From: Ignavibacteria bacterium
Lineage (GTDB): Bacteria > Bacteroidota > Ignavibacteria > Tepidaquicellales > Tepidaquicellaceae
Length of the DNA stretch: 64,000 nt
Reading direction: 5' to 3'
NCBI GenBank assembly: GCA_028714695.1
Contig: JAQTLX010000010.1
Coordinates: 73,397-137,396 of the forward strand
Made by a program: the position numbers and the translations under genes. Under the pieces are notes generated by a model. That model had not been told where the DNA came from. It ran no database searches and saw only the letters and a program-made list of their open reading frames with translations. Shown piece after piece: positions 1,800 to 50,746 of the stretch; within the stretch, counting starts at the first letter, position 1, and every line of letters starts with the position of its first letter.

Positions 1800-3824
1800 A
1801 TGGGGAACAATAAGAGTAATTTAAAAGGGGATTTTTCTGTAACAGAGTTACTGGGTCAGGAAAATATTTTACTTAAATCAAAAATCGGGGAACTTACATC
1901 AGCGCTCGCATCGCTAAAAACTGAGGAAGAAAAATTTCGTTCTTTTTACGAGACAATGACGGAGGGAGTGGCAATACACAAACTTCTTTTTGATAAAAAT
2001 AACCGGCCGGTTGATTACATTATTACCGATTGCAACCCTTCCTTTACACGCATAACGGGAATATCCAAAGAAAAAGCATTAAACAATTACGGAACAAAAT
2101 TATACGGTACATCAACTGCGCCTTATATTGATATATATTCCAAAACTGTCCAATCCGGAATTCCTGAATTTTTCGATGTGTTTTTCGAGCCTATGCAAAA
2201 ACATTTCAGTATATCCGTTATTTCTCTCAAAGATAATAATTTTGCAACTATTTTTTTGGATGTTTCGAACAGAATAAAATCCGATAACGAAATCAGAAAA
2301 AGAGAAATTGAATACAGAGACCTGGCAAACAATCTACCTTACATTATAAGCAGATACGACAAAGATTTCAAACACCTTTACATAAATTCAAAAATCGAGA
2401 CGGCTACAGGCATTCCTTATGAATCTTTTATCGGGAAAAGCATTACCAGTATTGAATTGCCGGAAGATTACAAGACAATATGGATAGAAAAACTCCAGGT
2501 TGTTTTTCATAAAAAGCAGCCTGTAATTTTTGAATTCGATTACGATACTCCTAACGGAAAACAAAAATACGAATCGCAAATCATCCCTGAATACAATTCA
2601 CAAAAGGAAGTTGAAACAGTTCTTTGCATCACACGAGATGTTACGCAGAGAAAAATCTACGAACAGGAACTCATAAAGGCAAAAGAACATGCGGAGGAAA
2701 TGAATCGAATAAAAACGAATTTTCTTGCAAATATAAGCCATGAACTGCGAACTCCGATGGTAGGAATTCTGGGGTTCTCGGAAATTATTGCGCAGGATAC
2801 ATTCGAAGAACAGACAAAAAAAATGGCAAAAATGCTGTACAAGGCGGGAAAAAGATTGACCCATACTTTGAATCAATTGCTGGACCTATCCAGAATTGAG
2901 GCTAACAGTCAGGTGGTAAGGCCCTTGAAACTGAATGTACCTTCATGTATCAGAACCGTTATTGAGAATAACGAACAACTTGCCGCCGGGAAAAAATTAA
3001 ATCTGGATTTTATTTGCAGCGACGAGAATATATCGGCATACCTCGATTCATATATGCTGAATGTCATATTGGACAATCTTATTAGTAACGCTATTAAATA
3101 TACAAATAAAGGCTGCGTAACAGTTTCTGTTTTTGAAGAAAAAATTGACAACACGAATTACTGTTCCATTAAGGTTGCCGATACCGGAATAGGAATATCC
3201 GAAGAAAACATGAATATAATCTTTGATGAATTCAGACAGGCAAGCGAGGGATACGGAAGAGTATTTGAAGGTACAGGTCTCGGTTTGACTATTACCAAAA
3301 AATTCACGGAAATGCTTTCTGGGAAATTATATATTGACAGTAAATTGGATGAGGGCACAACTGTTAAAATAACCTTTCCCGCTAATTTAAATATTCAAAC
3401 GGAAAATAATAAATCAGACGGAAACGGGATTATTAAAGTTTCGGATAAAATGGAGAATATACTTTTAATAGACGATGATGATTTTACAAGAGATTTTGTA
3501 AAGGCGCTTCTGAACGGCATATATATTGTTGATTTTGCAAAGAACGGAGCGGATGCTCTCGAAAAAATCGGACAGAAAAAATACGAACTCATTTTGCTTG
3601 ACATAAATCTGGGAATGGGTATTGACGGTCTTGAATTGCTTTCTCTTATAAGGCAAAAGAACGAATACAATAACGTACCGGTAATCGCCGTAACGGCTTC
3701 AACATTAGAGGGAGACAGAAACGTATTTCTTTCAAAAGGATGCAATGATTATCTCGGCAAACCTTTCGAGAAAAGACACCTTACAAGCATGATTGAAAAA
3801 CATCTGAAAGAAAAGTCTTCTTAA
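1800..3824 (+). CDS. Hybrid sensor histidine kinase/response regulator with PAS domains
   Basis: 674 aa. H-box NISHELRTPM, N-box NLISNAIKYT, G-boxes DTGIGI and GTGLGL. C-terminal receiver domain (ILLIDDDDF...LLDINLGMGIDG...GKPF). No AAA+/sigma-54 activator module. Confidence 0.92.
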   Translation: MGNNKSNLKGDFSVTELLGQENILLKSKIGELTSALASLKTEEEKFRSFYETMTEGVAIHKLLFDKNNRPVDYIITDCNPSFTRITGISKEKALNNYGTKLYGTSTAPYIDIYSKTVQSGIPEFFDVFFEPMQKHFSISVISLKDNNFATIFLDVSNRIKSDNEIRKREIEYRDLANNLPYIISRYDKDFKHLYINSKIETATGIPYESFIGKSITSIELPEDYKTIWIEKLQVVFHKKQPVIFEFDYDTPNGKQKYESQIIPEYNSQKEVETVLCITRDVTQRKIYEQELIKAKEHAEEMNRIKTNFLANISHELRTPMVGILGFSEIIAQDTFEEQTKKMAKMLYKAGKRLTHTLNQLLDLSRIEANSQVVRPLKLNVPSCIRTVIENNEQLAAGKKLNLDFICSDENISAYLDSYMLNVILDNLISNAIKYTNKGCVTVSVFEEKIDNTNYCSIKVADTGIGISEENMNIIFDEFRQASEGYGRVFEGTGLGLTITKKFTEMLSGKLYIDSKLDEGTTVKITFPANLNIQTENNKSDGNGIIKVSDKMENILLIDDDDFTRDFVKALLNGIYIVDFAKNGADALEKIGQKKYELILLDINLGMGIDGLELLSLIRQKNEYNNVPVIAVTASTLEGDRNVFLSKGCNDYLGKPFEKRHLTSMIEKHLKEKSS

Positions 3825-3834
3825 ATCCGGACAT

Positions 3835-4302
3835 CTAAATTAAGTCGCAGAATTTCGCGCCAGTCAACGAAGCCAAATCAACAGGCGATATTCTCACCTG
3901 CATTCCGCGTATTCCCGCACTGACATAAATCATTTCGAATATCTGCGCTGATTCTTCAATAAATGCAGGATATTTTTTTATCATCCCAATCGGCGAACAT
4001 CCGCCTCTTATGTATCCCGTAAGCGTTAAAAGATCCTTCACTTTAATCATTTCGATTTTTTTGTTTCCGCTTACCGAAGCGGCTTTTTTTAAATTTAATT
4101 CCGCATTTCCCGGGATTACAAATACTCCCGTACCGGTTTTGTCCCCGGTTAAAACGAGAGTCTTAAAGACTTCTTCATGTGGCGCGTTTATCTTATTCGC
4201 AACGCTTATCGCATCAATTTCATCTTCGTTGAATTCGTATTCGAACAGTTCATGTTTTATATTATTAAGTTCAAGAATCCTTACTGCATTCGTCTTTTTC
4301 AT
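3835..4302 (-). CDS. ybaK: Cys-tRNA(Pro)/Cys-tRNA(Cys) deacylase YbaK
   Basis: 155 aa. The N-terminus MKKTNAVRILELNNIKHELFEYE and the GGCSPIG motif are typical of the YbaK editing-domain family. Confidence 0.85.
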   Translation of the reverse strand: MKKTNAVRILELNNIKHELFEYEFNEDEIDAISVANKINAPHEEVFKTLVLTGDKTGTGVFVIPGNAELNLKKAASVSGNKKIEMIKVKDLLTLTGYIRGGCSPIGMIKKYPAFIEESAQIFEMIYVSAGIRGMQVRISPVDLASLTGAKFCDLI

Positions 4303-4314
4303 ATTAATACCCGT

Positions 4315-5001
4315 TTAAGAAATTAATTTTGCTATAACAAATGCAGCGCCCGCTGCCAGACCTCCGGTTACAACAGTTTGTATTGCTTTCCGGAACGGAG
4401 TTGTACTTATGAATCTGCCCTTAATATATCCGAAGATGCCGAGGGCAATTAGCGTGGATATGCATGAAGTAATTAATGCCGTAGTGGAACTTTGTATGAA
4501 AATATAAGGTGATAACGGAACGATACCGCCGGCAATGTAAGAGATCGCTATTGTCATTGCGCTGTTTCGGGCTCTTTCTTTTTCGGGTTTCTCCAGCCCG
4601 AGTTCAAACTTCATCATGAAATCGACCCACATCTGAGGATTCTTTCTAAGTTCTTCCACCAGCGGCTTCGATGATTCCTCGCTTACACCATAAACTTTCA
4701 TAATATCGGTAATTTCCTTTTTCTCCGCTTCGGGAATGTCTATGACTTCCTGCTCTTCACGTTTCTTTTCGCTTTCGTAATGTTCCGCATCGCTCTTTGC
4801 CGCGAGATATCCTCCAAGACCCATTGCTATTGAACCGGCAGAAATTTCCGCAAGTCCTGCAATTACTATAATGGAATTATTGTCTACAGCACCGGATAAT
4901 CCCGCTGCCAATGCAAATGGGACAGTCAGACCATCCGACATTCCAATAACAATATCCCTTATTAATTCACTCGACCTGAAATGCTTTTCTTTGTGTTCCA
5001 T
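4315..5001 (-). CDS. VIT1/CCC1-family iron/manganese transporter
   Basis: IRDIVIGMSDGLTVPFALAAGLSGA motif, a cytosolic acidic helix region and C-terminal TM helices. The ORF track starts at TTG 5010; I prefer ATG 5001 (MEHKEKH...). Confidence 0.85.
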   Translation of the reverse strand: MEHKEKHFRSSELIRDIVIGMSDGLTVPFALAAGLSGAVDNNSIIVIAGLAEISAGSIAMGLGGYLAAKSDAEHYESEKKREEQEVIDIPEAEKKEITDIMKVYGVSEESSKPLVEELRKNPQMWVDFMMKFELGLEKPEKERARNSAMTIAISYIAGGIVPLSPYIFIQSSTTALITSCISTLIALGIFGYIKGRFISTTPFRKAIQTVVTGGLAAGAAFVIAKLIS

Positions 5002-5082
5002 ATAAAACAAATTTTATTTGCATGAACAAATATAATTCATATTATATAAAAATGATAAGAATTCTCGCTTTAAAAAATGTAT

Positions 5083-5121
5083 AAAAAAATGAAGGAATAA
5101 AAGTTGTGCTTTTATTTCTTC
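5083..5121 (-). terminator. Rho-independent terminator downstream of small protein gene 5159-5530
   Basis: 13-bp stem gaaggaataaaag/cttttatttcttc (one G-U pair) with loop ttgtg. On the minus strand it is followed by a T7 run (plus-strand A-run 5083-5089). Confidence 0.55.
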
Positions 5122-5158
5122 ATTCCCGCGTCTTTAAAAACTATTTTTACGGCCCTTC

Positions 5159-5530
5159 TTATCTCCCTTTTATTCCTGCTATTGCGAATATTCCCGTAAG
5201 TAATGAGACGGCGCCCCAGAGAAAAATATTTGAAGTACAGGAACCTGACTTATCGTTCGAACAACTATTGTCGTCGTCATACGAGCAAATCTGAATATTA
5301 TTTGTCTTTATTGTCTTAGTCGATTTTATATCGGTTTTAAATTGTTCATATCCCGATTGCATCTTAATGCAGGTGTCAGGAAATACAAAATCAGGAATTT
5401 CACCTGCACCCTGAATCAATATCTTTTCACAACTTTCTTCTTTAGCGGACTTTGAATTCTTTCCTGCATCCTGAGCATTTAAACTCACACAAAATGCAAA
5501 GACTAATAAAAATGTGACTATTAATTTCAT
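5159..5530 (-). CDS. Small secreted Cys-rich protein with conserved C-terminal LWGAVS-TM-basic tail (P1)
   Basis: 123 aa. Signal peptide MKLIVTFLLVFAFCVSLNAQ and six Cys. The C-terminus SCTSNIFLWGAVSLLTGIFAIAGIKGR is shared with the 6375-6746 product. GGGAG lies 8 nt before the ATG, and a sigma-54-like promoter lies upstream. Confidence 0.7.
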   Translation of the reverse strand: MKLIVTFLLVFAFCVSLNAQDAGKNSKSAKEESCEKILIQGAGEIPDFVFPDTCIKMQSGYEQFKTDIKSTKTIKTNNIQICSYDDDNSCSNDKSGSCTSNIFLWGAVSLLTGIFAIAGIKGR

Positions 5531-5568
5531 TGTAACTCCCTTTTTAAAATTTGTATCATCGATAAATG

Positions 5569-5584
5569 TTCAAGATATATGCCA
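5569..5584 (-). promoter_or_regulatory. Sigma-54 (-24/-12) type promoter, TGGCAT-ATATC-TTGAA
   Basis: The minus strand reads TTCTGGCATATATCTTGAAC. GG, the 5-nt spacer and TTG fit TGGCAC-N5-TTGCA; the -12 C is replaced by A. There are 38 nt between the element and ATG 5530. Confidence 0.5.
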
Positions 5585-5731
5585 GAACATTAAACTTATA
5601 ATCCTGCAAATTTAATTTAAAAACGAATACTGTCACAAATGTAGGTTCACAAAAATCTCAAATAAAGATAGGAATTCTCAATATGAGAATTATTTATAGG
5701 CAAAAATAAGAAATAATATAAATTTTCACAT

Positions 5732-5760
5732 AAAAAAAAGAGGCATAGATTATGCCCCTT
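5732..5760 (-). terminator. Rho-independent terminator downstream of 5845-6174
   Basis: Hairpin agaggcat/atgcccct (one mismatch). On the minus strand it is followed by T8 (plus-strand A-run 5732-5739). Confidence 0.45.
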
Positions 5761-5844
5761 TGATATAAAAACTATTATATATTTATTTCCCGCCGTTCGT
5801 GTATAGAAATTTCTTTAAGAATTCATCGTATTCTATCCGGGGTT

Positions 5845-6174
5845 TTACTGAGAAACTATTCCGTTAGATATGGAATATGTAACTTCGTAAGAATACTTTA
5901 AAACATTTTTTCCGTCTTTTCCTGCAGGTTTATCATCTCTGAACGCTTTTCCGCCTGATTTTAAGTCAACTTTATTGATTTTTTCAATAATCGATTTATC
6001 GGCACCCTGTTCAAGAACATTACCGTCAACTATTGTGTATGTAAATTCATATGAATATCCGTTGCCCTGTCCAACCGTTGCCCCTGACGCTTTATCGTCA
6101 TTTCCTGCTGCGCCCTGTGCATTCAAATTGATGCAAACAAAGAATAAAATTGCAATAGTGATTAAGTACTTCAT
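5845..6174 (-). CDS. Small secreted protein with internal YSYE(F/V)TY(T/S)I repeat (P2)
   Basis: 109 aa. Signal peptide MKYLITIAILFFVCINLNAQ. Two copies of a about 17-aa segment (GYSYEFTYTIVDGNV / KYSYEVTYSISNGIV). A perfect sigma-54 consensus lies upstream. Confidence 0.7.
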   Translation of the reverse strand: MKYLITIAILFFVCINLNAQGAAGNDDKASGATVGQGNGYSYEFTYTIVDGNVLEQGADKSIIEKINKVDLKSGGKAFRDDKPAGKDGKNVLKYSYEVTYSISNGIVSQ

Positions 6175-6205
6175 AATATATGTTTATTTGTTTATAAAAT
6201 TATTT

Positions 6206-6221
6206 TGCAAGTTATGTGCCA
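6206..6221 (-). promoter_or_regulatory. Sigma-54 (-24/-12) promoter, perfect TGGCAC-ATAAC-TTGCA
   Basis: The minus strand reads CGTGGCACATAACTTGCAAAA, with 31 nt to ATG 6174. Confidence 0.65.
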
Positions 6222-6374
6222 CGTTTATTGGGCTAAGAAACACTAATTTTACTTCCAATTCAAGCATTTCCAAATAAAATTTATATAATAATATTCTCAA
6301 ACTTATACATTTTTCTCAAATTGATAATATTCAAAGATTTGAATTTTAGATAATTCTTCATTTCTTTGAATAAC

Positions 6375-6746
6375 TTACTTTTTCAATGTCAAAATCGAGA
6401 AAATCCCTGCCGCTACGGAAACAGCGCCCCATAATAGTAAATTGGACCCGCAGTTACCATTCGGGCACATATTCGAATTTTTGTTGAAATTATCTTCTAT
6501 CGAGGTATCTTCAGATTTTTTCACTATTCTGTCACGTTTCAAAACCAAATCACCTGTTTTTGTCGTTTCATAATTTATCTGCCTGATTCCGCTGATTTTT
6601 GTATAATTAAAAACATCTTTCGTTATATCGATTGCTTTTTGTGCTTTTAAATCTGAATTGCCGCTGAATTTGACTCCACCTGATATATCCTGCGAATAAA
6701 CAGCGCAAGTAGTAAGCAACATTAGTAGTACAATTATTTTCCCCAT
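6375..6746 (-). CDS. Small secreted protein with conserved C-terminal LWGAVS-TM-basic tail (P3)
   Basis: Start moved to ATG 6746 (MGKIIVLLMLLTTCAVYSQ signal peptide, GGGGAG 8 nt upstream). The TTG 6788 used by the ORF track lies inside the -12 promoter element. The C-terminus CPNGNCGSNLLLWGAVSVAAGIFSILTLKK matches P1. Confidence 0.7.
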   Translation of the reverse strand: MGKIIVLLMLLTTCAVYSQDISGGVKFSGNSDLKAQKAIDITKDVFNYTKISGIRQINYETTKTGDLVLKRDRIVKKSEDTSIEDNFNKNSNMCPNGNCGSNLLLWGAVSVAAGIFSILTLKK

Positions 6747-6783
6747 TTTTGACTCCCCAAATGATTTATGATACGAATTATAA

Positions 6784-6799
6784 GACAATATTTGTGCCA
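6784..6799 (-). promoter_or_regulatory. Sigma-54 (-24/-12) type promoter, TGGCAC-AAATA-TTGTC
   Basis: The minus strand reads TTCTGGCACAAATATTGTC. The -24 element is perfect and the -12 element is TTGT. There are 37 nt to ATG 6746. Confidence 0.55.
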
Positions 6800-7032
6800 G
6801 AATTATTACTTTATCATTCTAAATTTCATTGATTTTTTGTTCGTTTCTGGCATTTTTAAATTTCAATTCTGTTTATTCAATAGTCTCAATACATCTAACG
6901 AAATGTTCATACTATATTTCCTTAGCAGTATAAATAAATAGTACTTGCCCGCTTTTATTAAATAGCAACTATGATTTAAAATCTTTATTTTGTACCATGT
7001 TTGTATAACTTTACGATATGAAAGACTTTTAA

Positions 7033-8115
7033 ATGCAAAACAAATTATATTCGGTAATAAAAGGCACAGGATCATATATCCCTGAAAAAGTTGTCAGGAA
7101 CAGTGATTTTCTCAGCAACGTTTTTTACGATGCAGATGGAAAAATATTGGAGATACCAAACGAGGAATTAATAAAGAAATTCAAAAAAATTACGAATATA
7201 TCGGAAAGACGGTATCTCAACGATAAGTACGTTACTTCCGATATTGCATACTTTGCAGCAAAAAACGCAATTGAATCATCAGGTATAGACCCTGAAACTC
7301 TCGATTATATAATAGTAGGTCATAATTTTGGAGACGTAAGACCTGATAACGTAAGGTCTGATTTCGTTCCTTCCCTCGCCGCACGCGTAAAGCATAAACT
7401 GGGTATTAAGAAAGCGGAAGCGGTTGCATACGATGTAATATTCGGATGCCCCGGCTGGCTGCAGGGTGTGATACAGGCAAATTATTATCTCAAATCCGGC
7501 GACGCGAAACGCGCGCTTGTAATAGGATCTGAGGCTCTTTCGAGAATTTCCGATCCGCATGACAGGGACAGTTTGATATATTCCGACGGCGCGGGAGCAG
7601 TCATCCTTGAATCGGTTGAAAGTGGCGAACCGGTAGGTATTCTCTCTCATTCAACTAGATCAGACACGCTCAACGAAGCATATTATCTATGGATGAATGA
7701 ATCTTACAACCCGGAAAAAAGGAACAAAGACCTTTTCCTCAAAATGAACGGTAGAAAACTTTATGAATATGCTCTCAGCAATGTTCCTTCACTCGTGAAA
7801 GGTTGTATTGAGAAAGCAAAACTGACTCTTGACAATATAAGCAAAGTTCTCATACATCAGGCGAACGAAAAAATGGACGAAGCAATTTTGCAGAGGATAT
7901 TTTCTCTTTACGAAAAGAAAGGTGTTCCCGAAGGAGTTATGCCGATGATAATTGAAAAACTCGGAAACAGTTCCGTTGCAACAATACCGATTCTGCTTGA
8001 CCTTATTTTGAAAGGAAATCTTGAAACTCATACTATTAACCGCGGTGACAATCTCGTTTTTGCTTCCGTAGGGGCAGGTATGAATATAAATGCGGTTACT
8101 TACAAAATGGCATAA
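7033..8115 (+). CDS. 3-oxoacyl-ACP synthase III family protein (FabH-like)
   Basis: 360 aa. Active-site Cys context DVIFGCPGW, then HQAN and GNSSVATIP (His/Asn of the KAS III triad). Confidence 0.88.
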   Translation: MQNKLYSVIKGTGSYIPEKVVRNSDFLSNVFYDADGKILEIPNEELIKKFKKITNISERRYLNDKYVTSDIAYFAAKNAIESSGIDPETLDYIIVGHNFGDVRPDNVRSDFVPSLAARVKHKLGIKKAEAVAYDVIFGCPGWLQGVIQANYYLKSGDAKRALVIGSEALSRISDPHDRDSLIYSDGAGAVILESVESGEPVGILSHSTRSDTLNEAYYLWMNESYNPEKRNKDLFLKMNGRKLYEYALSNVPSLVKGCIEKAKLTLDNISKVLIHQANEKMDEAILQRIFSLYEKKGVPEGVMPMIIEKLGNSSVATIPILLDLILKGNLETHTINRGDNLVFASVGAGMNINAVTYKMA

Positions 8116-10335: not shown

Positions 10336-10932
10336 TGAATACTTTTAGTTCTCAAATGCACCCGTAACTCACAATGAGTGTTTTTCCATTTATTAATATA
10401 ATGGGAGTTTTTTATCTCGCCTCAGAGATTGAATGGGGACTATTCGGCATCGAAGGAAACGTGATATTGAAATCCGTATTTTATACTAATTTCTATTTAT
10501 ATAAGATAACACAAAAATTCGTAATTAATTAGTGTAAAAGAATTTTTATGCATATTCTGAACGGAAATAAGGTATATTCAATAATTGTAAATTTAGTATT
10601 TTTTAAAAGAACCGCCAAATAATACATATCCGATATTTGCAATTCTACCACACGACATATTGAATTTACACTTCCTGAGATATACGATAAACGAAATTTT
10701 CACCACACAAATACCTTAACATACCCCCCTAAATTTCCTTAAAATCGGTGTTTTTTAAAAAATTATACATCAAAAAAAAGTAAGAACACTGCTTTTGCAA
10801 TGTCCTTACTATGCACCCTCACGACGAGCGATAAATGAAAAAGTTAAGGTGCCGATATCATGGTATAGATTTTGAGAATCTCATAGTACACGACAAAAAA
10901 TTAATAAATAGAAAAATTAGAAAGGTAACGGA

Positions 10933-12987
10933 ATGATTAATTTCATACAAAATACAAAAAAGAGTAAAACAAGAGAGACCGGTAAATTCTCTTTCGTTTC
11001 AAAAATCAATACCACTGTAAAAGTAATATTGACATCATTTCTGATATTAATATCACTTGGAATTACTGATTCTTTTGCAACGATTTATTATTCTAAAGGT
11101 AATTTAAGCGCGAATTCAATATCCAGTTGGACAGACAATACATCTGGTACCGGGAAAACACCGTCAAACTTCACAAGCGGTGATAATTTCATAATTCAAT
11201 CCGGCGACACAATGACAACTTCCGCATCATGGACAATCTCGGGATTCGGTTCGTCATTGACTATTAACAGCGGCGGTTCGTTGACACTTGGCGGCAACTT
11301 ATCTTTAAGGGATTTTACTATTAACGGTAGTCTTATTGCGGGCGCGTATTTGGTTTCAGCAAGTACATCAAGCAGAACGTTTACAATAAACGGTACTTTA
11401 ACAACATCAAATGCAAACGGACTCAGCGGAAGTTCATCAACAACATTAAGCAGTACAAACAGTCCCGTAATCACAATAGCATCTACAAGCAAAATAGTTT
11501 ATAACTCAACATCTGCGCAGAATATCACGGCAACGACTTACGGACTTCTGGAAATAAGCGGTAACGGTACAAAATCTTTAGTTGGCGCCACTACAACAAA
11601 TTCCGACCTGATTATCGGCGCTAACAGCACATTAGCGCTTAACGGCAAAACTCTTAATCTCAATGATACTCTGGTTTACAACGGAACAATGACCGGAAGC
11701 ACAACATCGAATTTAGTAATCGGGGGCACGGGAAATAACGTTACTCTGCCTTCATTGACACTTGGTAATTTTACAGTAAACAGAACCTCAGGAGTAACAC
11801 TTTCGGGCGACATTACAATAAGCGGTACATTAACAATGTCTTCAGGAAATATTACAACGGGCAACAATTTGCTCACACTTGGAACAAGTTCTTCGACAAT
11901 TGGAACTTTGACGTACACAACGGGCAGAATTATAGGTTCATTCAAAAGATGGTTCAATACTTTGAACGTTTCGAATGTATTATTCCCTGTAGGCACATCG
12001 AGCACATCAAGGCTGGTTGCATTAACAAGAACAAACGTTAATGCTTCGACAGGCGCCGGATATCTTACTGCAAAATTTGTAACTGCTGACCCGGGAAACA
12101 ACAATACATCCGCATTAAATGACAACGGTTATACGGTTAACAGGTTTACAAATCAAGGTTACTGGGAAATAATAAAAGACACAAACAGTATAAATATGAC
12201 CGGGAATTTCAATTTAAACCTTGAAACCACAGGATTTTCGGGTATCAACAAAATTGACAGTTTAAGGATTATAAAAAGAACATCAGCGGCCGCGCTCTGG
12301 GTAATGGAAGGAACACACACTGCCGGAGTCAGCACGACAGCAAAACGTTCAGGCATGTCAACGTTCGGTCAGTTCACACTCGGCGGAAATACCGTGGATA
12401 ATCCCTTAACGGATTCACCGCTGCCCGTCACACTTTCATCATTCACGTCATTTGTAAAATCAAACAATGTTACTCTCAACTGGTCAACTGCGAACGAATC
12501 AAACAACAAAGGTTTTGATATCGAAAGAAAAGATATTAACGGCTATGAATATGTAAAAGCGGGATATGTAGCGGGAAACGGAACGACCAATCACGTCAGC
12601 AACTATTCATTCATCGACAGCAAACTTAATGCGGGAAAATATTCATACAGAATAAAACAGACCGATCTCAACGGCAACTACGAATACTTCAGTTTAAATG
12701 CAAATATCGAAATCGTAACTCCCGGGAAATTCAATCTTTCGCAGAATTATCCGAATCCGTTTAATCCGACTACGAAAATAGATTACGAAATACCTGCAGA
12801 CAGCAAGGTTCAGATTAAGATTTACGACATCAGCGGCAAAGAAGTTATGCAGTTGGTGAATCTGAATCAAAAGGCCGGATATTATACGATACAATTCAAC
12901 GCAGGCAGTTTAAGCAGCGGCACATATTTTTATAAACTTATTGCAGGAAGCGATGTTATTACAAAGAAAATGACGCTTATAAAATAA
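10933..12987 (+). CDS. Large secreted repeat protein with T9SS C-terminal sorting domain
   Basis: 684 aa. N-terminal hydrophobic anchor/signal and a Ser/Thr/Gly/Asn-rich beta-helix-like repeat region (TLGGNLSL, TLSGDITISGTLTMSSGNIT). An Ig-like module follows (NWSTANESNNKGFDIER...YRIKQTDLNG). The CTD is LSQNYPNPFNPTTKIDYEIP...GTYFYKL. Confidence 0.85.
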   Translation: MINFIQNTKKSKTRETGKFSFVSKINTTVKVILTSFLILISLGITDSFATIYYSKGNLSANSISSWTDNTSGTGKTPSNFTSGDNFIIQSGDTMTTSASWTISGFGSSLTINSGGSLTLGGNLSLRDFTINGSLIAGAYLVSASTSSRTFTINGTLTTSNANGLSGSSSTTLSSTNSPVITIASTSKIVYNSTSAQNITATTYGLLEISGNGTKSLVGATTTNSDLIIGANSTLALNGKTLNLNDTLVYNGTMTGSTTSNLVIGGTGNNVTLPSLTLGNFTVNRTSGVTLSGDITISGTLTMSSGNITTGNNLLTLGTSSSTIGTLTYTTGRIIGSFKRWFNTLNVSNVLFPVGTSSTSRLVALTRTNVNASTGAGYLTAKFVTADPGNNNTSALNDNGYTVNRFTNQGYWEIIKDTNSINMTGNFNLNLETTGFSGINKIDSLRIIKRTSAAALWVMEGTHTAGVSTTAKRSGMSTFGQFTLGGNTVDNPLTDSPLPVTLSSFTSFVKSNNVTLNWSTANESNNKGFDIERKDINGYEYVKAGYVAGNGTTNHVSNYSFIDSKLNAGKYSYRIKQTDLNGNYEYFSLNANIEIVTPGKFNLSQNYPNPFNPTTKIDYEIPADSKVQIKIYDISGKEVMQLVNLNQKAGYYTIQFNAGSLSSGTYFYKLIAGSDVITKKMTLIK

Positions 12988-31841: not shown

Positions 31842-33287
31842 TTAAATGTCATAATTATGATATACTTTTCTCCACCACTGTAAATATTTTTCCGGCAACG
31901 CATAATCTTCTCCGCTGAATTCCATAAGATATTTTTTTGCACGCACTTTTTCATCAGGATAACCGGCCCAAAATATACCAATCGCATTTATAAACTTTAT
32001 ATTCTTTACTGCCTCAGGCCAGATATTTATATCCCATTCTTTCTTATCAGCCATTTCTATATCGCCTAAGTTAGTTTCAAAACCTAACCTTAGTAATTTA
32101 TAATTTATCTCCTCTTTGTTTTCTTCTTTTGAAAATAAATTAAAAATATAATCTCTGTATTCCTTAGTATCAAAATGACTTAAATCAAATGTTTTTTGTT
32201 TATCAAACCATTTTTTATAATCATTAATGTTCTTAAAATCAATTCCCGCCGAATAAGACAGATTTTTTAGTATCATTTTCCCCTGATCATAAGCAAGTTG
32301 TCCTTCAGAATAATTATCATATTGAAAGAGTTTTGCCAGGGCATTTTCAAATATAAACTTACTGTAAACCATACTGAATATATGATCAAGCGTATTTGCG
32401 TAATGTATGAACCAAAAATAATCATACTGTTTCTTGTTCAGTGATTCGTTTTTAACTTCGTCACTTATAACATATGGTGTTTTATTCACCAGTGAATCCA
32501 GACCCATGTTCTTTAATTTTTCCGGAGGAGTTATCAACTTAGCAATAGTAAGTACATTATTATCGCCAAAATATTTCTTAAGATATCCTGCCAGGTAATA
32601 TCCCATGCAACTGTCAGAGTCTACAATAAAACCGCCTAAATTTTTACTTACTCGATCTTTTTGTAAATGAGCAAGTCCGTAATAAAATAAATATTTATCA
32701 TTTTTTCTTGTGTTATAATAATCAATGAATTTTTGAGAAATTACGCTGTCCCTTTTATTTATAAACCATAATTGAGACTCACGTTTGGTCATCCTTAGGA
32801 ATTCGAGAGGGATATTTTGACCTACATCTTCAAATCCCAAAACCTTGAAATTAATTTCCAGTCCCGGATGATTCAAATTTTCCACAACTATCGAATCATT
32901 AAATGATTTTAAATTAATTATGAACTCTAAATGCTCATAGCATTCACCTAATGAAAAACGATTAAGGATATCCGATAAATTGGAGGATTTGAAATAATTA
33001 TTTATTTCAGTTGCCAGCGAGTCCTCACGCTCGATAACAAGATTCAGGGTCTGAGATTTTACATCCGAGTTCTTTGTAACATCAAACCACTCATATAATA
33101 TTTTGATTATTTCTTTATATCCGGAAGGATGCCAGTGAGGCTGCTCTGAAACAATAACGATTTTTCTTTTATTAATTTCTCTTGCTATTGTTCTTTCAGG
33201 ATTGTCATCTTTAGTATTAATCTTATTTTGACATCCAAATAGCAACGGAAAGAAAACAATAATCACAAAGAATCTTGAAATTTTCAT
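31842..33287 (-). CDS. Lipoprotein of unknown function (possible Tiki/ChaN/erythromycin-esterase-like fold)
   Basis: 481 aa. Lipobox FPLLFGC. IVIVSEQPHWHP and YLFYYGLAHL resemble the paired GExH/GxxH motifs of that superfamily. It lies 42 nt downstream of glgA. Confidence 0.7.
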   Translation of the reverse strand: MKISRFFVIIVFFPLLFGCQNKINTKDDNPERTIAREINKRKIVIVSEQPHWHPSGYKEIIKILYEWFDVTKNSDVKSQTLNLVIEREDSLATEINNYFKSSNLSDILNRFSLGECYEHLEFIINLKSFNDSIVVENLNHPGLEINFKVLGFEDVGQNIPLEFLRMTKRESQLWFINKRDSVISQKFIDYYNTRKNDKYLFYYGLAHLQKDRVSKNLGGFIVDSDSCMGYYLAGYLKKYFGDNNVLTIAKLITPPEKLKNMGLDSLVNKTPYVISDEVKNESLNKKQYDYFWFIHYANTLDHIFSMVYSKFIFENALAKLFQYDNYSEGQLAYDQGKMILKNLSYSAGIDFKNINDYKKWFDKQKTFDLSHFDTKEYRDYIFNLFSKEENKEEINYKLLRLGFETNLGDIEMADKKEWDINIWPEAVKNIKFINAIGIFWAGYPDEKVRAKKYLMEFSGEDYALPEKYLQWWRKVYHNYDI

Positions 33288-33329: not shown

Positions 33330-34772
33330 CTAATTTTGTTTTAACGATTCATAGAGTCTCAGATATTCCCCTGCCGATTTTTCCCAACTGAAATCGTTTT
33401 TCATTCCGCGCTGAATTACTTTCTCCATTTGTTTCGTGTCTTCGAATAATTTTCGCGACCTGTGGAATGCCTGTTCGAACTCTTCATAAACAAAATCACG
33501 GAATGTTATGCCGTTGCCCTCTTTTTCATTGCTGATATCAGTTACCGTATCCGCCAATCCGCCGACTTCCCTTACAATGGGCACAGTTCCGTAATTCAGG
33601 CTGTACATCTGGTTCAGACCGCACGGCTCATATCTCGAAGGCATAAAGAAAAAATCTGAACCTGCCGTTATAAGATGAGCAAATTCATTATTGTATCCAA
33701 GAAAAACTTTTATTTTGCCGGGGTTTTCGATTGACAATGCGGTTAATTTTTCTTCGTATTCTTTTTCTCCCGAACCAAGCACAATAAGTCTGAAATTTTC
33801 GCTTTTTGTTTTCTCACACAGTTCGATTATTAGTTCGATGCCTTTCTGCCACGCAAGGCGCGTGACTATTCCGTACAGCGGAATATCCGTTTCATCATCG
33901 AATCCCGCTTTTTGCAGCAATTTTTCTTTGTTGTATTTTTTATCTTCAGGGTTTTTATATGAATAATTTTTTGGAATTAATTTATCGGTTAAAGGATTCC
34001 ATTCAATCGTATCAATGCCGTTCAGTATCCCGCGGATATTATCTTTTCTTGCTCTGAGCACGCCGTCTAATCCCGAACCGAATTCAGACGTCGTAATTTC
34101 TTCCGCATATTTCGGACTTACTGTAGAAACAACATCAGAATAAAAAATACCTGTTTTCAGAAAATTGGCATTTCCATTGAACTCGAATGGTCCGCCAAGT
34201 ACAAAACATGAATCGCCGAATCCGGCTTTCCTTACTGTGTCAGGCTCGAATATCCCCTGATATCCTATATTGTGAATGGATAATATTGTTTTTGAATTTT
34301 CAAACAACTTGTCCCATGAATACTGAAGTTTAAGCATTGCGGGAATATAAGACGACTGCCAGTCATTGCAGTGTAAAATATCCGGCTGCCACTGTAGATA
34401 CTGAAGTGATTTCAGTACCGCATGCTGGAACATAATAAATCTTTCGTTTTCATCTTTATCATTGGTATAAACTATTCCCCTTCCGAAATAATAAGGACAA
34501 TCAACGAAATGGAATTCCAAATTTTCGTTTTTTTTGTATGAATGGATGCAGAATTCTCTTTTTTCATCTCCGATTTCAACGAAAGCAGGAGGAAAATCAA
34601 CAAGTTTTACGATTCCGAACTTCTTTGTGTCAACAACATCATACAACGGCAGAAAAACTTTCACATTAACACCATTTGAGGTCAATGCTTCGGGCAAAGA
34701 ACCGCTCACATCGGCAAGTCCTCCGGTTTTAACAAAAGGAGCGCATTCGCTCGTAATAAAACAGACTTTCAT
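33330..34772 (-). CDS. glgA: Glycogen synthase (ADP-glucose type)
   Basis: 480 aa. MKVCFITSECAPFVKTGGLADV start and the C-terminal PSRYEPCGLNQMY motif. Confidence 0.95.
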   Translation of the reverse strand: MKVCFITSECAPFVKTGGLADVSGSLPEALTSNGVNVKVFLPLYDVVDTKKFGIVKLVDFPPAFVEIGDEKREFCIHSYKKNENLEFHFVDCPYYFGRGIVYTNDKDENERFIMFQHAVLKSLQYLQWQPDILHCNDWQSSYIPAMLKLQYSWDKLFENSKTILSIHNIGYQGIFEPDTVRKAGFGDSCFVLGGPFEFNGNANFLKTGIFYSDVVSTVSPKYAEEITTSEFGSGLDGVLRARKDNIRGILNGIDTIEWNPLTDKLIPKNYSYKNPEDKKYNKEKLLQKAGFDDETDIPLYGIVTRLAWQKGIELIIELCEKTKSENFRLIVLGSGEKEYEEKLTALSIENPGKIKVFLGYNNEFAHLITAGSDFFFMPSRYEPCGLNQMYSLNYGTVPIVREVGGLADTVTDISNEKEGNGITFRDFVYEEFEQAFHRSRKLFEDTKQMEKVIQRGMKNDFSWEKSAGEYLRLYESLKQN

Positions 34773-37952: not shown

Positions 37953-40028
37953 ATGAATATCTTTCACACGGAATTATACGGAATTTTTATATATATAATT
38001 TTCATAGTTGCAGCATTAACGGTATCATTTTTATTTTACAGAAACACTAATGTATACGGTTTTAAAAAAGCGGTATTGACCGGATTACGGTCGGTATCGC
38101 TTTTTTTTATCTTGTTACTGCTCATTAATCCTTTTGTTAATTTGTCGGGTGTTTCGAACCTCGAGAATACCGATGTTATCCTTTTAGACAACAGCGCCAG
38201 TCTTTCTCTGGAAAACAGATTTGAAAACTTCCGGACTGCAATTAACGAGGTAAAAAAACTGAGCGGGAACGTCCGGATTTATTCTTTCGGAAACGGACTG
38301 CTCAAGGAAATTAAGGATTCGGATTCTTTGTTTTCATATTCCCCCGTTAATTCATATTCAACTGACCTCTCCAAAACCCTTGAAGATCTTTTTTCAAGAA
38401 CCGGAAATTTTAACATCAATTCCGTCACCATTATATCGGACGGATTAATTAATCACGGGAATAACTTAGATGACGCGGCGAAAAAATTCGGTGTGCAGTT
38501 TAATTACATTTTGACGGGTGATACAGCGAGAAAAAACGATTTGCTTGTCAGTAAAGTCTTTTACAACAGGACTGCATTTGCCGGCAGCGTTTCCACTATA
38601 AATGTTTTACTAAATTCTTACGGATACGACAAGACCGTAAATGTTAAACTCTATGAGGATGATAACCCGGTACAAACCAAAACAATCGTAACCGATAAGA
38701 ATACTTCCGATTATTATACGGACTTTAAAATATCTTCCGGATCAGCAGGAATTAAGAAATACAGAATCGTGATTGATACTTTGCCTGATGAGATTACCCA
38801 TAAGAACAATGTCTCTGAATTCTATATAAAATACACCGATAATAAATTCAGAATACTCGTGATTGCAGGCAGCCCCGGCATGGATTATTCTTCATTCAAA
38901 CAGGAAATAAACAAGATTGATAATTTCAGAACCGATTTTTTTGTTCAGAAATCGGCGGACGCATTCTACGAAGGTGATTTGCCCGCTTTCGATAGTTATG
39001 ACGCATTGATACTGATTGGATTCCCGATTGAGAATACCAACAGAACTATTATCGAGAATCTGAAGAAAAAACTGGCAGAAAGTAATATTCCCGTAATCTT
39101 TTTAAATGCTTCAAATACCGGATACGGAAACCTGAAAGAAATTGAGAATTTTCTTCCATTTTATATAAGCGGCTCAGATAAGAATATTTTTCAGTCAACT
39201 GCAAGAATATTGTCAGACAATCTGCCCGATGAACCTGAATCCATCAGGAAAATAAACACATTGCCTCCTGTCATCTTTACAAGAAATAGTTTTTCGCCTA
39301 AACCCGGCTCTGATGTTCTTGCCGTGACTCCGGGCGAAAACGAACCGGCGGTTTTATATAGTAATACTGCTTTGCATAAGTCATCCGCTTTTCTTGGTTT
39401 CGGATATTATAAATGGACTTTAAACAATTCACAGAACAGTGAACGGGTATTAAAGAACCTTATTTCTGTACTATTTAATCTGATTTTCAAAGAGACAACG
39501 GGAAGCAGGTTCACAGTCCGAACGGATAAAGATTATTATGCATATTCCGAACCGGTTGAAATTACAGCGCTTTTAAAAGACAGACCTTTAACCGGGAATA
39601 TTTCAGTAAGGCTGAATCTTACGGGTAAAAACGGGTCAAAAGAACTTAATATGCCAGAAATAAGCAATTCGGAATTCGGGATTAATATTACTCCTGATTA
39701 TGAATCCGATTACACAGTCGACACGGATTTACTAATTGACGGCCGTACAGCAGCAAAGGATATAACAAAATTTACTGTAGGCAGTCCGCGTGAAGAATTC
39801 CTTAAAACACAACCGAATGATGCAATACTGAAATCTCTTTCTTTGAGCACAGGCGGGAAAAACCTTAGGAATCCCGGCGTCAAAAATCTTGGCTCCGGAA
39901 ATAAAAAAGATGTTCAAGAATCGTATTCCGGAAAATACCTGCTTAGAAATTCGATTGTATTCCTATTAATAATAATATTTTTCCTTTCGCTTGAGTGGTT
40001 TCTTAGAAAAAGATTTAATCTGCCTTAA
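37953..40028 (+). CDS. Membrane protein with N-terminal double-TM (BatA_N-like) domain and C-terminal TM anchor
   Basis: 691 aa. Two N-terminal helices followed by DVILLDNSASL (vWA/BatA-like start). The last 30 aa are hydrophobic plus RKRFNLP. Confidence 0.7.
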   Translation: MNIFHTELYGIFIYIIFIVAALTVSFLFYRNTNVYGFKKAVLTGLRSVSLFFILLLLINPFVNLSGVSNLENTDVILLDNSASLSLENRFENFRTAINEVKKLSGNVRIYSFGNGLLKEIKDSDSLFSYSPVNSYSTDLSKTLEDLFSRTGNFNINSVTIISDGLINHGNNLDDAAKKFGVQFNYILTGDTARKNDLLVSKVFYNRTAFAGSVSTINVLLNSYGYDKTVNVKLYEDDNPVQTKTIVTDKNTSDYYTDFKISSGSAGIKKYRIVIDTLPDEITHKNNVSEFYIKYTDNKFRILVIAGSPGMDYSSFKQEINKIDNFRTDFFVQKSADAFYEGDLPAFDSYDALILIGFPIENTNRTIIENLKKKLAESNIPVIFLNASNTGYGNLKEIENFLPFYISGSDKNIFQSTARILSDNLPDEPESIRKINTLPPVIFTRNSFSPKPGSDVLAVTPGENEPAVLYSNTALHKSSAFLGFGYYKWTLNNSQNSERVLKNLISVLFNLIFKETTGSRFTVRTDKDYYAYSEPVEITALLKDRPLTGNISVRLNLTGKNGSKELNMPEISNSEFGINITPDYESDYTVDTDLLIDGRTAAKDITKFTVGSPREEFLKTQPNDAILKSLSLSTGGKNLRNPGVKNLGSGNKKDVQESYSGKYLLRNSIVFLLIIIFFLSLEWFLRKRFNLP

Positions 40029-40083
40029 AAGAAAGCGATTGAATAATAATGCTTTTATTAATATCTTATTAAAAAATTCCGAT

Positions 40084-41400
40084 ATGAAATATGGAAAATA
40101 TATATTGCCATTTTTTATATTCCTCTTTATATCTTCATCCCTGTATTCACAGCAATATTGGCTCGACATGCCAAGCCCGGTTAATCTGGATTTGAGAAAA
40201 AGCTGCTTTCTGGATACACTGAACGGATGGGTGGCGGGAGATTCAGGTCTCATTATAAAAACATCCAACGGCGGTTTAAACTGGTCCAGACAAAATTCCA
40301 AAACCAGACTTCCTGTCTACGAAATATTCTTTCTTAACAGCCGGCTCGGCTGGGCGCTTGCATGGAATTTATTTGATCCCTTACTTCCATTCGGAACATT
40401 AATTTTGAAGACAACCGACGGCGGCATTAACTGGGATACTTCAACGTTCAAGACACAAAATGCTTTTTTACCTGCGATATATTTCCAGGATTCTTTATAT
40501 GGTTTCATGGGAGGTAATTTGCGCAATATTATGAGAACAACCGATGGCGGGGCTGACTGGCTGGACTGCGCAATAGATACTATATCCGTTTCTTTTCTTC
40601 CCGTCATGAGTTTTACTTTTCTAAACAATGATTACGGTTATGCATCAGGAGGCCATCAGGATTTTGCGGGTCTTATTTGGAGAACTACTAACAGAGGCGT
40701 CAGGTGGATACCAACTGTGGTTGCCCCGGAACCGGTAAACAATGTGGTCTTCCTTGATTCCTTAAGGATAATTGGTGTGAGCGGAGATGTCGAGAATGGT
40801 CCCGGTTCGATTTCTTCCCTTAATTCCGGTCTCTCATGGAAATACAATTATCTTGGTTATTTCGGACGGTCCGGTCTGATTGCTTTCAGAAATAAAAATG
40901 AAGTCTGGGCACCGCTTGCTAGCGCTCTAAGTTTCATTTATTCGCTTGATACCGGCAAGTCGTGGAACATTTACCCCAATCCTGATTCTGTAGATGTCAA
41001 TCATGTGATATTTCCTGATTCAAAACACGGTTTCGCATTTTGCATGAGAGGCAGAATACTGAAGTATAATGCTGCTTTAATCGGGATTAATAATCTTAAT
41101 ACATACATAATTGAGGATTATAAATTAAATCAGAATTATCCCAACCCTTTTAATCCTTCGACAAATATTTCCTATGAATTAAAAAATTACAGTTATGTTA
41201 TCTTAAAAATCTACGATATATCGGGCAGGGAAATCAGGACTTTAATTGACGGCTATCAGGACGGAGGAAAACATTATTTGAATTTCAACGGCAGTACAAT
41301 TTCATCCGGAATTTATTTTTATGAAATACAGATTAGGGACTTATCGAACAAGAGTGAGAAACTTTTCAAAGAAACAAAAAAAATGTTATTGGTTAAATGA
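40084..41400 (+). CDS. BNR/Asp-box beta-propeller (Ycf48-like) protein with T9SS C-terminal domain, paralog A
   Basis: 438 aa from ATG 40084 (signal MKYGKYILPFFIFLFISSSLYSQ). The ORF-track start 39991 would overlap the preceding gene. Asp-boxes TSNGGLNW, TTDGGINW, TTDGGADW. CTD is LNQNYPNPFNPSTNISYEL. Confidence 0.85.
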   Translation: MKYGKYILPFFIFLFISSSLYSQQYWLDMPSPVNLDLRKSCFLDTLNGWVAGDSGLIIKTSNGGLNWSRQNSKTRLPVYEIFFLNSRLGWALAWNLFDPLLPFGTLILKTTDGGINWDTSTFKTQNAFLPAIYFQDSLYGFMGGNLRNIMRTTDGGADWLDCAIDTISVSFLPVMSFTFLNNDYGYASGGHQDFAGLIWRTTNRGVRWIPTVVAPEPVNNVVFLDSLRIIGVSGDVENGPGSISSLNSGLSWKYNYLGYFGRSGLIAFRNKNEVWAPLASALSFIYSLDTGKSWNIYPNPDSVDVNHVIFPDSKHGFAFCMRGRILKYNAALIGINNLNTYIIEDYKLNQNYPNPFNPSTNISYELKNYSYVILKIYDISGREIRTLIDGYQDGGKHYLNFNGSTISSGIYFYEIQIRDLSNKSEKLFKETKKMLLVK

Positions 41401-41465
41401 AGTTACAATTAAGATATGCGTTGAAAAATACTGCTTTTATATATATTTTGTAACATAATTTTAAC

Positions 41466-42782
41466 ATGAAATTCGGAAAAACAATACTTTCTGTTTTAAT
41501 AGTTTTATTTATAACTTCCGGTCTGTATTCGCAGCAGTACTGGCTCAGTATGAATAGTCCCGTCAAACTTGACCTTAAGAGGTGCTGTTTTCTTGACAGT
41601 ATTACGGGATGGGTCGTGGGAGATTCCGGTTTGGTTATGAAAACCACAAATGGAGGTCTTAACTGGACACGCCAGAATGCAAAAACAAAGAATCAAATTC
41701 ACGAGGTATTTTTTCTTAATAAAAGATTAGGATGGGCTTTATCGTGGAATATATTCAACCCCGCGCCGCCTTATGGAACTCTATTATTAAGGACTTCAGA
41801 CGGAGGAATAAACTGGGACACTTCGAGTTTTGTTACTGAAAATGTATATATCAGAACAGTTGTTTTCCAGGACTCACTGCATGGATTTATGGGCGGAACG
41901 TTCAGAAATATTATGAGAACAACTGATGGCGGCGCCAACTGGCTGGATGTTTCAATAGACTCTATAGTAGTTTCATTTTTTCCGGTGAATAGTTTCAATT
42001 TTTATAGTAATAATTTCGGTTATGCTAGCGGCGGACAGATAGACTTTGCAGGAGTTGTATGGAGAACAACTAATCGGGGAATAAGATGGACACCCGCTTT
42101 ATTAGCACCCGAACCCATGTGGAACGTTTGTTTTTTAGACTCCATGAGAATTATCGGTTTGTGCGGAGATTTTGAATACGGTCCGAGTATAACAACAACA
42201 TCAAACTCAGGAATGAACTGGAAATATGTTTATCTGGGGTTTTTTGGCTTTCCTTCCGCTATGGCTTACAGAACTAATTATGAAGTCTGGGCTCCGCTGG
42301 GTTTTGCGAGAGCATTTATATATTCAATAGATTCAGGATATACATGGACTGAATTTACAAATCCTGATACCGCTGAAGTGAATCACGTTGTGTTTCCTGA
42401 TTCCAGACACGGATATGCCGTCTGCCAATACGGGCAAATGCTGAAATACAACACTACTCTTATAGGTATAAACAATCAGAATACAACGGTTACGAGTGAT
42501 TATACGCTGCACCAGAATTATCCGAACCCTTTTAATCCCTCTACTAACATAACTTATGAATTAAGAAGTAATAGTTATGTGATTATGAAAATTTATGATT
42601 TGACAGGCAAAGAAATAAAAACATTGTTCAACGGATATCAGAACAGCGGCAAATACAATTTAAGGTTCGCGGGGGATAATCTGCCTTCGGGTATATATTT
42701 TTATGAAATTACTGCAAGGGATTTATCCGGAAAATCTAATAATGTTTTTAAAGAAACAAAGAAAATGATCCTTTTAAAATAA
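41466..42782 (+). CDS. BNR/Asp-box beta-propeller (Ycf48-like) protein with T9SS C-terminal domain, paralog B
   Basis: 438 aa, collinear with paralog A without gaps (roughly 60% identical by eye). TTNGGLNW, TSDGGINW, TTDGGANW. CTD is LHQNYPNPFNPSTNITYEL. Confidence 0.88.
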   Translation: MKFGKTILSVLIVLFITSGLYSQQYWLSMNSPVKLDLKRCCFLDSITGWVVGDSGLVMKTTNGGLNWTRQNAKTKNQIHEVFFLNKRLGWALSWNIFNPAPPYGTLLLRTSDGGINWDTSSFVTENVYIRTVVFQDSLHGFMGGTFRNIMRTTDGGANWLDVSIDSIVVSFFPVNSFNFYSNNFGYASGGQIDFAGVVWRTTNRGIRWTPALLAPEPMWNVCFLDSMRIIGLCGDFEYGPSITTTSNSGMNWKYVYLGFFGFPSAMAYRTNYEVWAPLGFARAFIYSIDSGYTWTEFTNPDTAEVNHVVFPDSRHGYAVCQYGQMLKYNTTLIGINNQNTTVTSDYTLHQNYPNPFNPSTNITYELRSNSYVIMKIYDLTGKEIKTLFNGYQNSGKYNLRFAGDNLPSGIYFYEITARDLSGKSNNVFKETKKMILLK

Positions 42783-50690: not shown

Positions 50691-50706
50691 GGGCATGAAA
50701 ATTGCA
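50691..50706 (+). promoter_or_regulatory. Sigma-54 (-24/-12) type promoter, gGGCAT-GAAAA-TTGCA
   Basis: Reads ATATGGGCATGAAAATTGCACAA. GG, the 5-nt spacer and TTGCA fit the consensus. There are 40 nt to ATG 50747. The TTG the ORF track used as start (50702) is the -12 element. Confidence 0.5.
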
Positions 50707-50746
50707 CAAAATTTTTTTGTTATTAGGAATATTTAAATTTGGGGTC

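Follow-up and report, generated by a model that had tools for sequence, protein, structure and literature searches.

Three adjacent genes for small exported proteins in an Ignavibacteria bacterium, here called g1, g2 and g3, are likely to be three separate transcription units, each served by its own enhancer-dependent sigma-54 (-24/-12) promoter, a reading in which we have considerable confidence. The genes lie in a 64,000-nucleotide stretch of contig JAQTLX010000010.1 (positions 73,397 to 137,396 of the forward strand; assembly GCA_028714695.1), hereafter the window, which has a GC content of 38%. In this metagenome-assembled genome (MAG) they are annotated merely as hypothetical proteins PHN88_10390, PHN88_10395 and PHN88_10400. 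Three independent sigma-54 promoters had been proposed earlier for this locus from inspection of the window (the original prediction), and the proposal now gains support from the conservation of the sites in related lineages and from dyads located at enhancer distance.

The sites were judged against the sigma-54 consensus of Barrios et al. (1999), TGGCAC-N5-TTGCW, which PMC3162934 and PMC12316311 also use. Read on the minus strand, the regions upstream of g1, g2 and g3 contain TTCTGGCATATATCTTGAA (core 5584-5569), CGTGGCACATAACTTGCAA (6221-6206) and TTCTGGCACAAATATTGTC (6799-6784), in which TGGCAY-N5-TTG occupies positions 5584-5571, 6221-6208 and 6799-6786, respectively. The sites had been placed 31-38 nt from the start codons, and both the sequences and the distances were verified: the 3' edge of the 16-mer is 38 nt from ATG 5530, 31 nt from ATG 6174 and 37 nt from ATG 6746. 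In all three, an exact 10-nt gap lies between the GG at -25/-24 and the G at -13, and all three retain the 5-nt spacer and the TTG attributed to them. The middle site had been called perfect, and it is the only TGGCAC-N5-TTGCW in the window; the g2 site is also the only one of the three having the -12 C (TTGC), the others being TTGA (g1) and TTGT (g3).

A rough hand estimate had put the chance expectation for TGGCAY-N5-TTG (TGGCAYNNNNNTTG) at about one per window. The computed value was 0.70 for 64 kb on both strands and four matches were found, a number reached by 2 of 100 shuffles. Three of the four matches are on one strand inside 1.3 kb. The fourth, at 34166(+), was dropped as a further promoter because it lies antisense within a starch-synthase-like open reading frame (ORF); it looks like a chance match. 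The composition-based odds of one match in a 20-nt slot before each of the three given ATGs are ~1e-12. When the 16-mer was loosened to allow up to two mismatches there was no enrichment in the window (22 matches versus 19.6 expected), and hence the case is carried by the invariant bases, by where they lie and by how they are conserved.

The gene cluster, with fabH divergent from g3, g2 and g1, was found in seven lineages: the window and six further Ignavibacteria, these being L002/L005 (SRR5198901), L006 (ENA ERZ27247879), L007 (identical to L014; GCA_021286895.1), L009 (SRR27665443), L015 (LaPlata_bin-1896) and L016 (Ignavibacteria DFE_IGN, 2.76-Mb contig JADLKE010000002.1). In each of the 20 readable promoters, positions -26 to -22 read T-G-G-[CT]-A and positions -15 to -13 read T-T-G; the spacing is exact, the TTG standing 5 bases past the hexamer, and the GG-to-G gap of 10 nt is likewise found in 20/20. 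The g1 promoter is kept as TGGCAY-A-N4-TTG and the g2 promoter as TGG[CT]AYA-N4-TTG in all seven lineages, whereas the g3 promoter is kept in the six lineages in which it was readable, including L016 where it reads TGGCAGGGATTTTGTA. The clade consensus is TGGCAYA-N4-TTG[ATc]. All sites are intergenic and on the coding strand, and in each promoter 29-47 nt separate the G of the TTG from the ATG, which leaves room for a 20-30 nt leader containing a Shine-Dalgarno sequence. The information content of 14 sites was 1.1-2.4 bits at the core columns and ~0-0.5 bit in the flanks. Within L001 (13 kb), L007 (16 kb), L009 (6.4 kb) and L015 (5.8 kb), these promoter places account for all occurrences of the motif. 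It had been suggested that orthologous loci should keep the GG and TTG while their flanks drift, and this is how the 20 readable promoters from the seven lineages all behave.

An independent ranking was obtained using a weight matrix built without the window, from the 14 sites in five other lineages (L006, L007, L009, L015 and L016). Of ~128,000 positions scored in the window, the g1 site ranked first (19.6 bits), the g2 site second (17.3 bits) and the g3 site third (17.0 bits), the next best match scoring 14.2 bits. The protein sequences give the scale of divergence against which this conservation is to be read. Between the window and L007, L009, L015 and L016 the identities are 84-86% for FabH and 75-86% for Rrf2 versus 43-48% for g3, 40-46% for g2 and 31-35% for g1. 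Given these values, neutral DNA is expected to be saturated and the small proteins are unusually fast-evolving. As g1-g3 are only 31-48% identical and yet the 9 bases of the promoter core are invariant in 20/20 sites, purifying selection is required. Outside the cluster, the 14.2-bit match is the intergenic sequence TGGTATAGATTTTGAG at 10861-10876 (+), located 58 nt before ATG 10933 of a 684-aa protein having a type IX secretion system (T9SS) C-terminal sorting tail; this could be a fourth promoter of the sigma-54 type, but chance alone predicts about two such loose matches.

Further upstream, conserved dyads and repeats lie at -74 to -116 (positions counted from the T of TGG), in keeping with enhancer sites ~80-150 nt upstream. 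For g1, TTCTCA is at -102 to -106 and TGAGA[AT] at -74 to -77 in 7/7 lineages, and in L007, L009 and L015 these form part of 15-nt perfect inverted arms, ATATTTCTCAAAATG-N12-CATTTTGAGAAATAT. For g2, a CAWTTTGAGAA half-site is found at -77/-78 in six of the seven lineages and at -74 in L016, with a second copy at -96/-97 whose orientation is direct in three lineages but inverted in L015. The g3 upstream region lacks TGAGAA and instead has a CATAGT-N26-ACTAT dyad kept in 6/6 readable lineages. This dyad is at -105/-74 in L007, L009, L015 and L016 and at -116/-85 in the window and L005, a displacement of exactly 11 bp, or one helical turn, which suggests a face-of-helix constraint. Hence g1 and g2, which are unrelated genes, both have TGAGAA at -74 to -78, and the g1 and g3 dyads are both at ~-105/-75. 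Dyads centred ~115 nt before the predicted start, common to unrelated genes and in helical phase, resemble sites for bacterial enhancer-binding proteins (bEBPs), and from this resemblance we infer bEBP binding. Two other stretches have sequences of similar appearance. A second dyad, ATAGT-N25-ACTAT, adjoins the fabH start at 6938-6972 and part of it, CATAGTTGCTATTTAAT, is kept across lineages; it may belong to the divergent fabH promoter or to a shared regulator. The spacer between g1 and VIT1 (5010-5158) contains GAGAATTCT, which is similar to the half-site TGAGAATT, and the VIT1 start (ATG 5001) is directly preceded by a TAAAATTTG-like sequence, hinting at a very short VIT1 leader.

Table 1 Genes and candidate regulatory elements of the g1-g3 cluster (window coordinates)
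Feature	Position	Strand	Description
g1	5159..5530	-	123-aa predicted exported protein; signal peptide ending LNA|Q; low-complexity ectodomain
g1 -24/-12 promoter (putative)	5569..5584	-	TGGCATATATCTTGAA; predicted start ~5558; 5' untranslated region ~28 nt
g1 candidate upstream activating sequence (UAS)	5655..5691	-	palindrome AATTCTCATATTGAGAATT plus third half-site TGAGAT; TTCTCA at -105, TGAGA at -96 and -76
Terminator-like hairpin after g1	5080..5125	-	hairpin plus U7; 84-nt segment -16.5 kcal/mol, z = -2.6
g2	5845..6174	-	109-aa predicted exported soluble protein; signal peptide ending LNA|Q
g2 -24/-12 promoter (putative)	6206..6221	-	TGGCACATAACTTGCA; perfect consensus match; predicted start ~6195
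g2 candidate UAS	6293..6320	-	two direct TTTGAGAA half-sites at -97 and -78; half-site same as g1
Intrinsic terminator after g2	5729..5761	-	11-bp stem, then U8
g3	6375..6746	-	123-aa g1 paralogue; signal peptide ending YS|Q
g3 -24/-12 promoter (putative)	6784..6799	-	TGGCACAAATATTGTC; predicted start ~6773
g3 candidate UAS	6880..6915	-	dyad CATAGT-N26-ACTAT at -116/-85; g1-like geometry, different half-site
Weak terminator candidate after g3	6328..6372	-	AT-rich hairpin without a clean U-run, z = -2.8

Two of the genes had been thought to have their own terminators, and a hairpin followed by a U-run is indeed present after g1 and after g2, with only an AT-rich hairpin after g3 (Table 1). This layout agrees with three monocistronic units.

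Several observations weigh against sigma-54 control. Genes encoding RpoN and an enhancer-binding protein are absent from the 64-kb window, as originally noted, and from all of the flanks fetched. Six-frame translation of the window gave no GAFTGA motif, no bEBP Walker A motif and no RpoN box, and 20 large window ORFs had no sigma-54-related Pfam domains. No cognate PF00158/GAFTGA bEBP was found in the flanks of L001, L007, L015 and L016 (as far as these were read), and a 6.4-kb Logan contig that extends the contig rightward was without regulators. The hybrid kinase near g1, which had been described as having only a receiver, is a PAS-HisKA-HATPase-REC protein with neither an AAA+ nor a DNA-binding domain. 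It was dropped as the activator because it lacks AAA+ and helix-turn-helix domains and because its position is not conserved, L007 having a different kinase elsewhere. The sites themselves depart from the consensus: just 4 of the 20 have the -12 C (g2 of three lineages and g1 of L016), the remainder being TTGA or TTGT, and -20 is A rather than the consensus G in 19 of the 20. The lineages compared form a single narrow clade and are not fully independent, although their intergenic DNA beyond the boxes is essentially randomised. Finally, the half-site TTTGAGAAA showed no window-wide enrichment (56 versus 56.4 expected); enrichment was thus dropped as evidence for the UAS elements, the significance of which derives from position alone.

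The -12 deviation lowers but does not remove membership in the sigma-54 class because validated sigma-54 promoters with far weaker -12 boxes exist, those of E. coli dcuD, xapB and glpQ having much stronger -12 deviations (PMC12316311). Sigma-54 is near-universal in free-living diderm lipopolysaccharide (LPS) bacteria (PMC3162934), and full-length RpoN (AID-CBD-DBD) is encoded by both cultured Ignavibacteria, Ignavibacterium album (IALB_2998) and Melioribacter roseus (MROS_1125) (PMC12316311, supplement 8). The main texts of the literature gave nothing on Ignavibacteria together with sigma-54 or rpoN: the I. album genome paper says only that there are 16 sigma factors, and a 2025 cross-phylum sigma-54 survey discusses no Ignavibacteria regulon.

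Given these departures, we considered whether TGGCAYA-N4-TTG could be an operator bound by an ordinary transcription factor or could belong to a housekeeping-sigma promoter (-33/-7 or -35/-10), with the dyads being conventional activator or repressor sites. The poor conservation of the -12 C and a TATAAT-like stretch after the TTG in several g3 promoters favor this interpretation, and the AT-rich context with a conserved TTG near the start resembles the Bacteroidetes housekeeping promoter (-33 TTTG / -7 TAnnTTTG). However, the invariant positions are the sigma-54 contact bases at an exact 10-nt gap, and the 5-nt gap between the boxes is incompatible with the spacing of -35/-10 (~17 nt) or -33/-7 (~19 nt) elements. 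Moreover, the TGGCA box is invariant, whereas neither TAnnTTTG nor a fixed -10 hexamer is common to g1, g2 and g3. The element is also not palindromic, unlike most operators, and dyads centred ~115 nt before the predicted start lie at a distance that is typical for an enhancer but long for a class I or class II activator. We therefore regard an operator or housekeeping promoter as unlikely.

A motif that was merely inherited by tandem duplication of a gene together with its upstream region, and that has no present function, seems very improbable. The upstream regions of g1 and g3 are probably of common ancestry, as these genes are paralogues, but g2 is unrelated to g1/g3 beyond its signal peptide and yet has the best motif. 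The three upstream regions are dissimilar outside the boxes, and promoter conservation in 20/20 sites against randomised flanks persists while the proteins retain only 31-48% identity. Random clustering, within AT-rich spacers, of a short motif that contains G/C would be compatible with the shuffles that reach four matches and with the lack of enrichment of the loose 16-mer. It does not account for sites on the same strand in the same slot before three consecutive ATGs, for their repetition in six other lineages or for the top three ranks given the window sites by an independent matrix; the comparative data refute it and we give it almost no weight. Sigma-54 promoters thus remain the preferred interpretation.

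Although the original prediction held that the three products all have signal peptides and otherwise look unrelated, only the first part is correct, since g1 and g3 are paralogues (32% identity, E 4e-10) and g2 resembles them in its signal peptide only. All three N-termini are basic and hydrophobic and end in A/S|Q, the 'Q-rule' pattern of signal peptidase I, which is followed by 77% of the predicted signal peptidase I substrates of Ignavibacterium album (PMC5837995). g1 has an acidic Cys motif, C-x-YDDDNSC-x6-SC-TSN, a C-terminal hydrophobic helix, LWGAVSLLTGIFAIAGI, and a KGR tail; the corresponding features of g3 are C-PNGN-C-GSN, LWGAVSVAAGIFSILTL and a KK tail. The block common to the two proteins is G-[SN]-C-x-S-N-x-x-LWGAVS..GIF.I...K(G)[KR] with acidic Cys-containing residues just before it, and in the family alignment C98, S100, W105, A107, G113 and K121 are invariant. 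The real start of g3 is ATG 6746, which has the Shine-Dalgarno sequence GGGGAG, rather than TTG 6788, and this start is kept as MGKI/MKK in the orthologues. g2 consists of two internal repeats, GYSYEFTYTIVDGNV and KYSYEVTYSISNGIV, that end YSYE[FV]TY.I..G.V and are reflected in an internal DNA repeat at 162-nt spacing. The g2 orthologues of L009 (4435-4749) and L015 (2077-2391) have a Cys-rich insert between the repeats (CCADIIDCH / ECCSENNVCH) that is lacking in g2 of the window.

None of the three proteins had a meaningful match in Pfam, NCBIfam, PHROGs, PADLOC or PDB sequences, and an Rfam search of positions 4900-7200 gave only sub-threshold noise. Among 5.8 billion proteins there were 10 homologues of g1/g3 and 3 of g2, and the families make up 5 representative clusters among 1.84 billion. 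The AlphaFold2 (AF2) model of g1, which is of low confidence, has helices only at residues 2-24 and 102-121 and is otherwise disordered (mean predicted local distance difference test score, pLDDT, 48), whereas that of g2 was unusable (pLDDT 40). The simplest topology for g1 and g3 would be periplasm-facing proteins tethered C-terminally to the inner membrane. Their assignment as lipoproteins was dropped because the Cys near signal-peptide position 14 is not conserved (P0006, P0010 and P0012).

The sequences themselves show the motif with its placement and conservation, the dyads, the paralogy and the elements of predicted topology; in the pathway that we envision, we infer sigma-54 dependence, the identity of the activator, the signal and the function of the products. 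Sigma-54 RNA polymerase would bind TGGCAYA-N4-TTG before each gene as a closed complex, and the dyads ~100-130 nt before the predicted start would be bound by at least one AAA+ enhancer-binding protein whose gene would lie elsewhere in the genome. g1 and g2 would be under one activator, probably the same protein because the half-site CAWTTTGAGAAA is common to both, and g3 would be under a second and possibly paralogous activator, which is probable because it has CATAGT/ACTATG at the same position. The activator would loop over to drive ATP-dependent promoter opening, and each transcript would be monocistronic and end at its own hairpin. The products would exit the cytoplasm via Sec and signal peptidase I (cleavage A/S|Q). 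g1 and g3 would then be held at the inner membrane by the C-terminal helix, with the acidic Cys segment beside the membrane on the periplasmic side, and g2 would be a soluble periplasmic or secreted two-repeat protein. Such regulation fits the view of sigma-54 as a controller of the cell exterior (PMC3162934). The products most likely serve an inducible, envelope-facing response of the psp or zraP type. A link to metal or redox stress is a weak guess based on the iron/redox neighbors (VIT1, Rrf2-IscS-IscA and SOD) and the Cys/Asp-rich juxtamembrane motif, a hint limited by the absence of VIT1 from L016 and by synteny drawn from one narrow clade.

The C-terminal tail of g1 and g3 resembles the PEP-CTERM, GlyGly-CTERM, MYXO-CTERM and PGF-CTERM sorting tags in having a motif with an invariant Cys (S/N-C-x-S-N/K), a helix (LWGA[VLI]S..AG...) and a terminal K/R. 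The alignment and the AF2 helix at 102-121 thus show the tripartite arrangement of a short signature, a membrane helix and a basic C-terminal cluster. Unlike those tags, it is found only on g1/g3 homologues in the window and all loci fetched; a profile search of 5.8 billion proteins also returned only the g1/g3 family, and no NCBIfam tag model matched at E <= 1. No exosortase- or rhombosortase-like gene was seen among the annotated neighbors. As no other protein of the window or fetched loci has the tail, a dedicated sorting tag is not supported, and a plain C-terminal membrane anchor explains the tail equally well. A bolder proposal, that the cluster is an Ignavibacteria-specific sigma-54 envelope module with two probably paralogous dedicated bEBPs and that the tail of g1 and g3 is no plain membrane anchor but a new C-terminal signal for Cys-dependent processing or anchoring, strikes us as unlikely. 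Were it true, g1 and g3 would undergo Cys-linked attachment after helix removal, as proposed for MYXO-CTERM-type tags, and one bEBP for the TTCTCA/TGAGAA sites and another for the CATAGT/ACTATG sites would control fast-evolving periplasm-facing proteins.

The surroundings of the cluster are as follows. fabH (7033-8115, +) is divergent from g3, g2, g1, VIT1 and a ybaK-like gene (all -), beyond which are the hybrid kinase gene (+) and then the genes encoding Rrf2, cysteine desulfurase, an IscA-like protein and Fe/Mn-SOD. A kinase near the cluster recurs in L007 (GCA_021286895.1), where a different PAS-rich histidine kinase (2304-4184, -) adjoins the cluster in the gap between truB and fabH; in the window the kinase is 3' of ybaK, and the position is not conserved. 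Farther away, two large window ORFs of 481 and 691 aa (31842-33287, -, and 37953-40028, +) have no Pfam match at 1e-5. Por_Secre_tail (T9SS) sorting domains are present on the proteins encoded at 39991-42782 (+), 50702-52795 (+) and 10933-12987 (+), two of these window proteins also having BNR/Ycf48-like repeats, and therefore the organism has type IX secretion cargo.

The locus had been put forward as a candidate for something undescribed. This holds for the protein families, which have no Pfam or NCBIfam match and comprise about five clusters; the consensus of the local promoters is likewise new, as are both candidate enhancer motifs. It does not hold for the mechanism of regulation, which is classical. 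The evidence favors a fairly ordinary lineage-specific sigma-54 regulon rather than a new kind of system, a well-supported conclusion, and no new regulatory principle is revealed. The sigma-54 regulons of Ignavibacteria are uncharted, and a clean local consensus validated by comparison, TGGCAYA-N4-TTG without the -12 C, together with two candidate enhancer half-sites provides the seeds for a genome-wide search for the regulon and its activators. The two orphan protein families, known from a handful of metagenomes, evolve two to three times faster than their neighbors whereas the regulatory DNA is frozen, as is typical when changing selection acts on surface or envelope proteins.

In architecture the putative g1-g3 promoters follow the E. 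coli glnAp2/NtrC and pspA/PspF class. They share its GG-N10-G spacing with TGGCA at -26 to -22 and TTG at -15 to -13, the location of the site 20-30 nt before a Shine-Dalgarno sequence and ATG, and the dyads ~100-130 nt before the predicted start. The shift of a dyad by one helical turn is also a change that enhancer-dependent sigma-54 promoters tolerate. They differ from canonical sigma-54 promoters in that the -12 C is mostly A or T and -20 is A rather than G. The Psp proteins (PspF-dependent) and ZraP (ZraSR-dependent) of E. coli are small inner-membrane or periplasmic proteins, the genes of which have -24/-12 promoters. g1-g3 show no sequence homology to PspA/B/C or ZraP/CpxP/Spy and no detectable likeness of fold to Psp or ZraP, there being zero Pfam, NCBIfam and PDB matches. 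Unlike in the Psp and ZraP systems, no activator adjoins the genes, which form three monocistronic units instead of a single operon. The likeness, which is one of analogy and not of homology, is that of small envelope proteins encoded behind -24/-12 sites.

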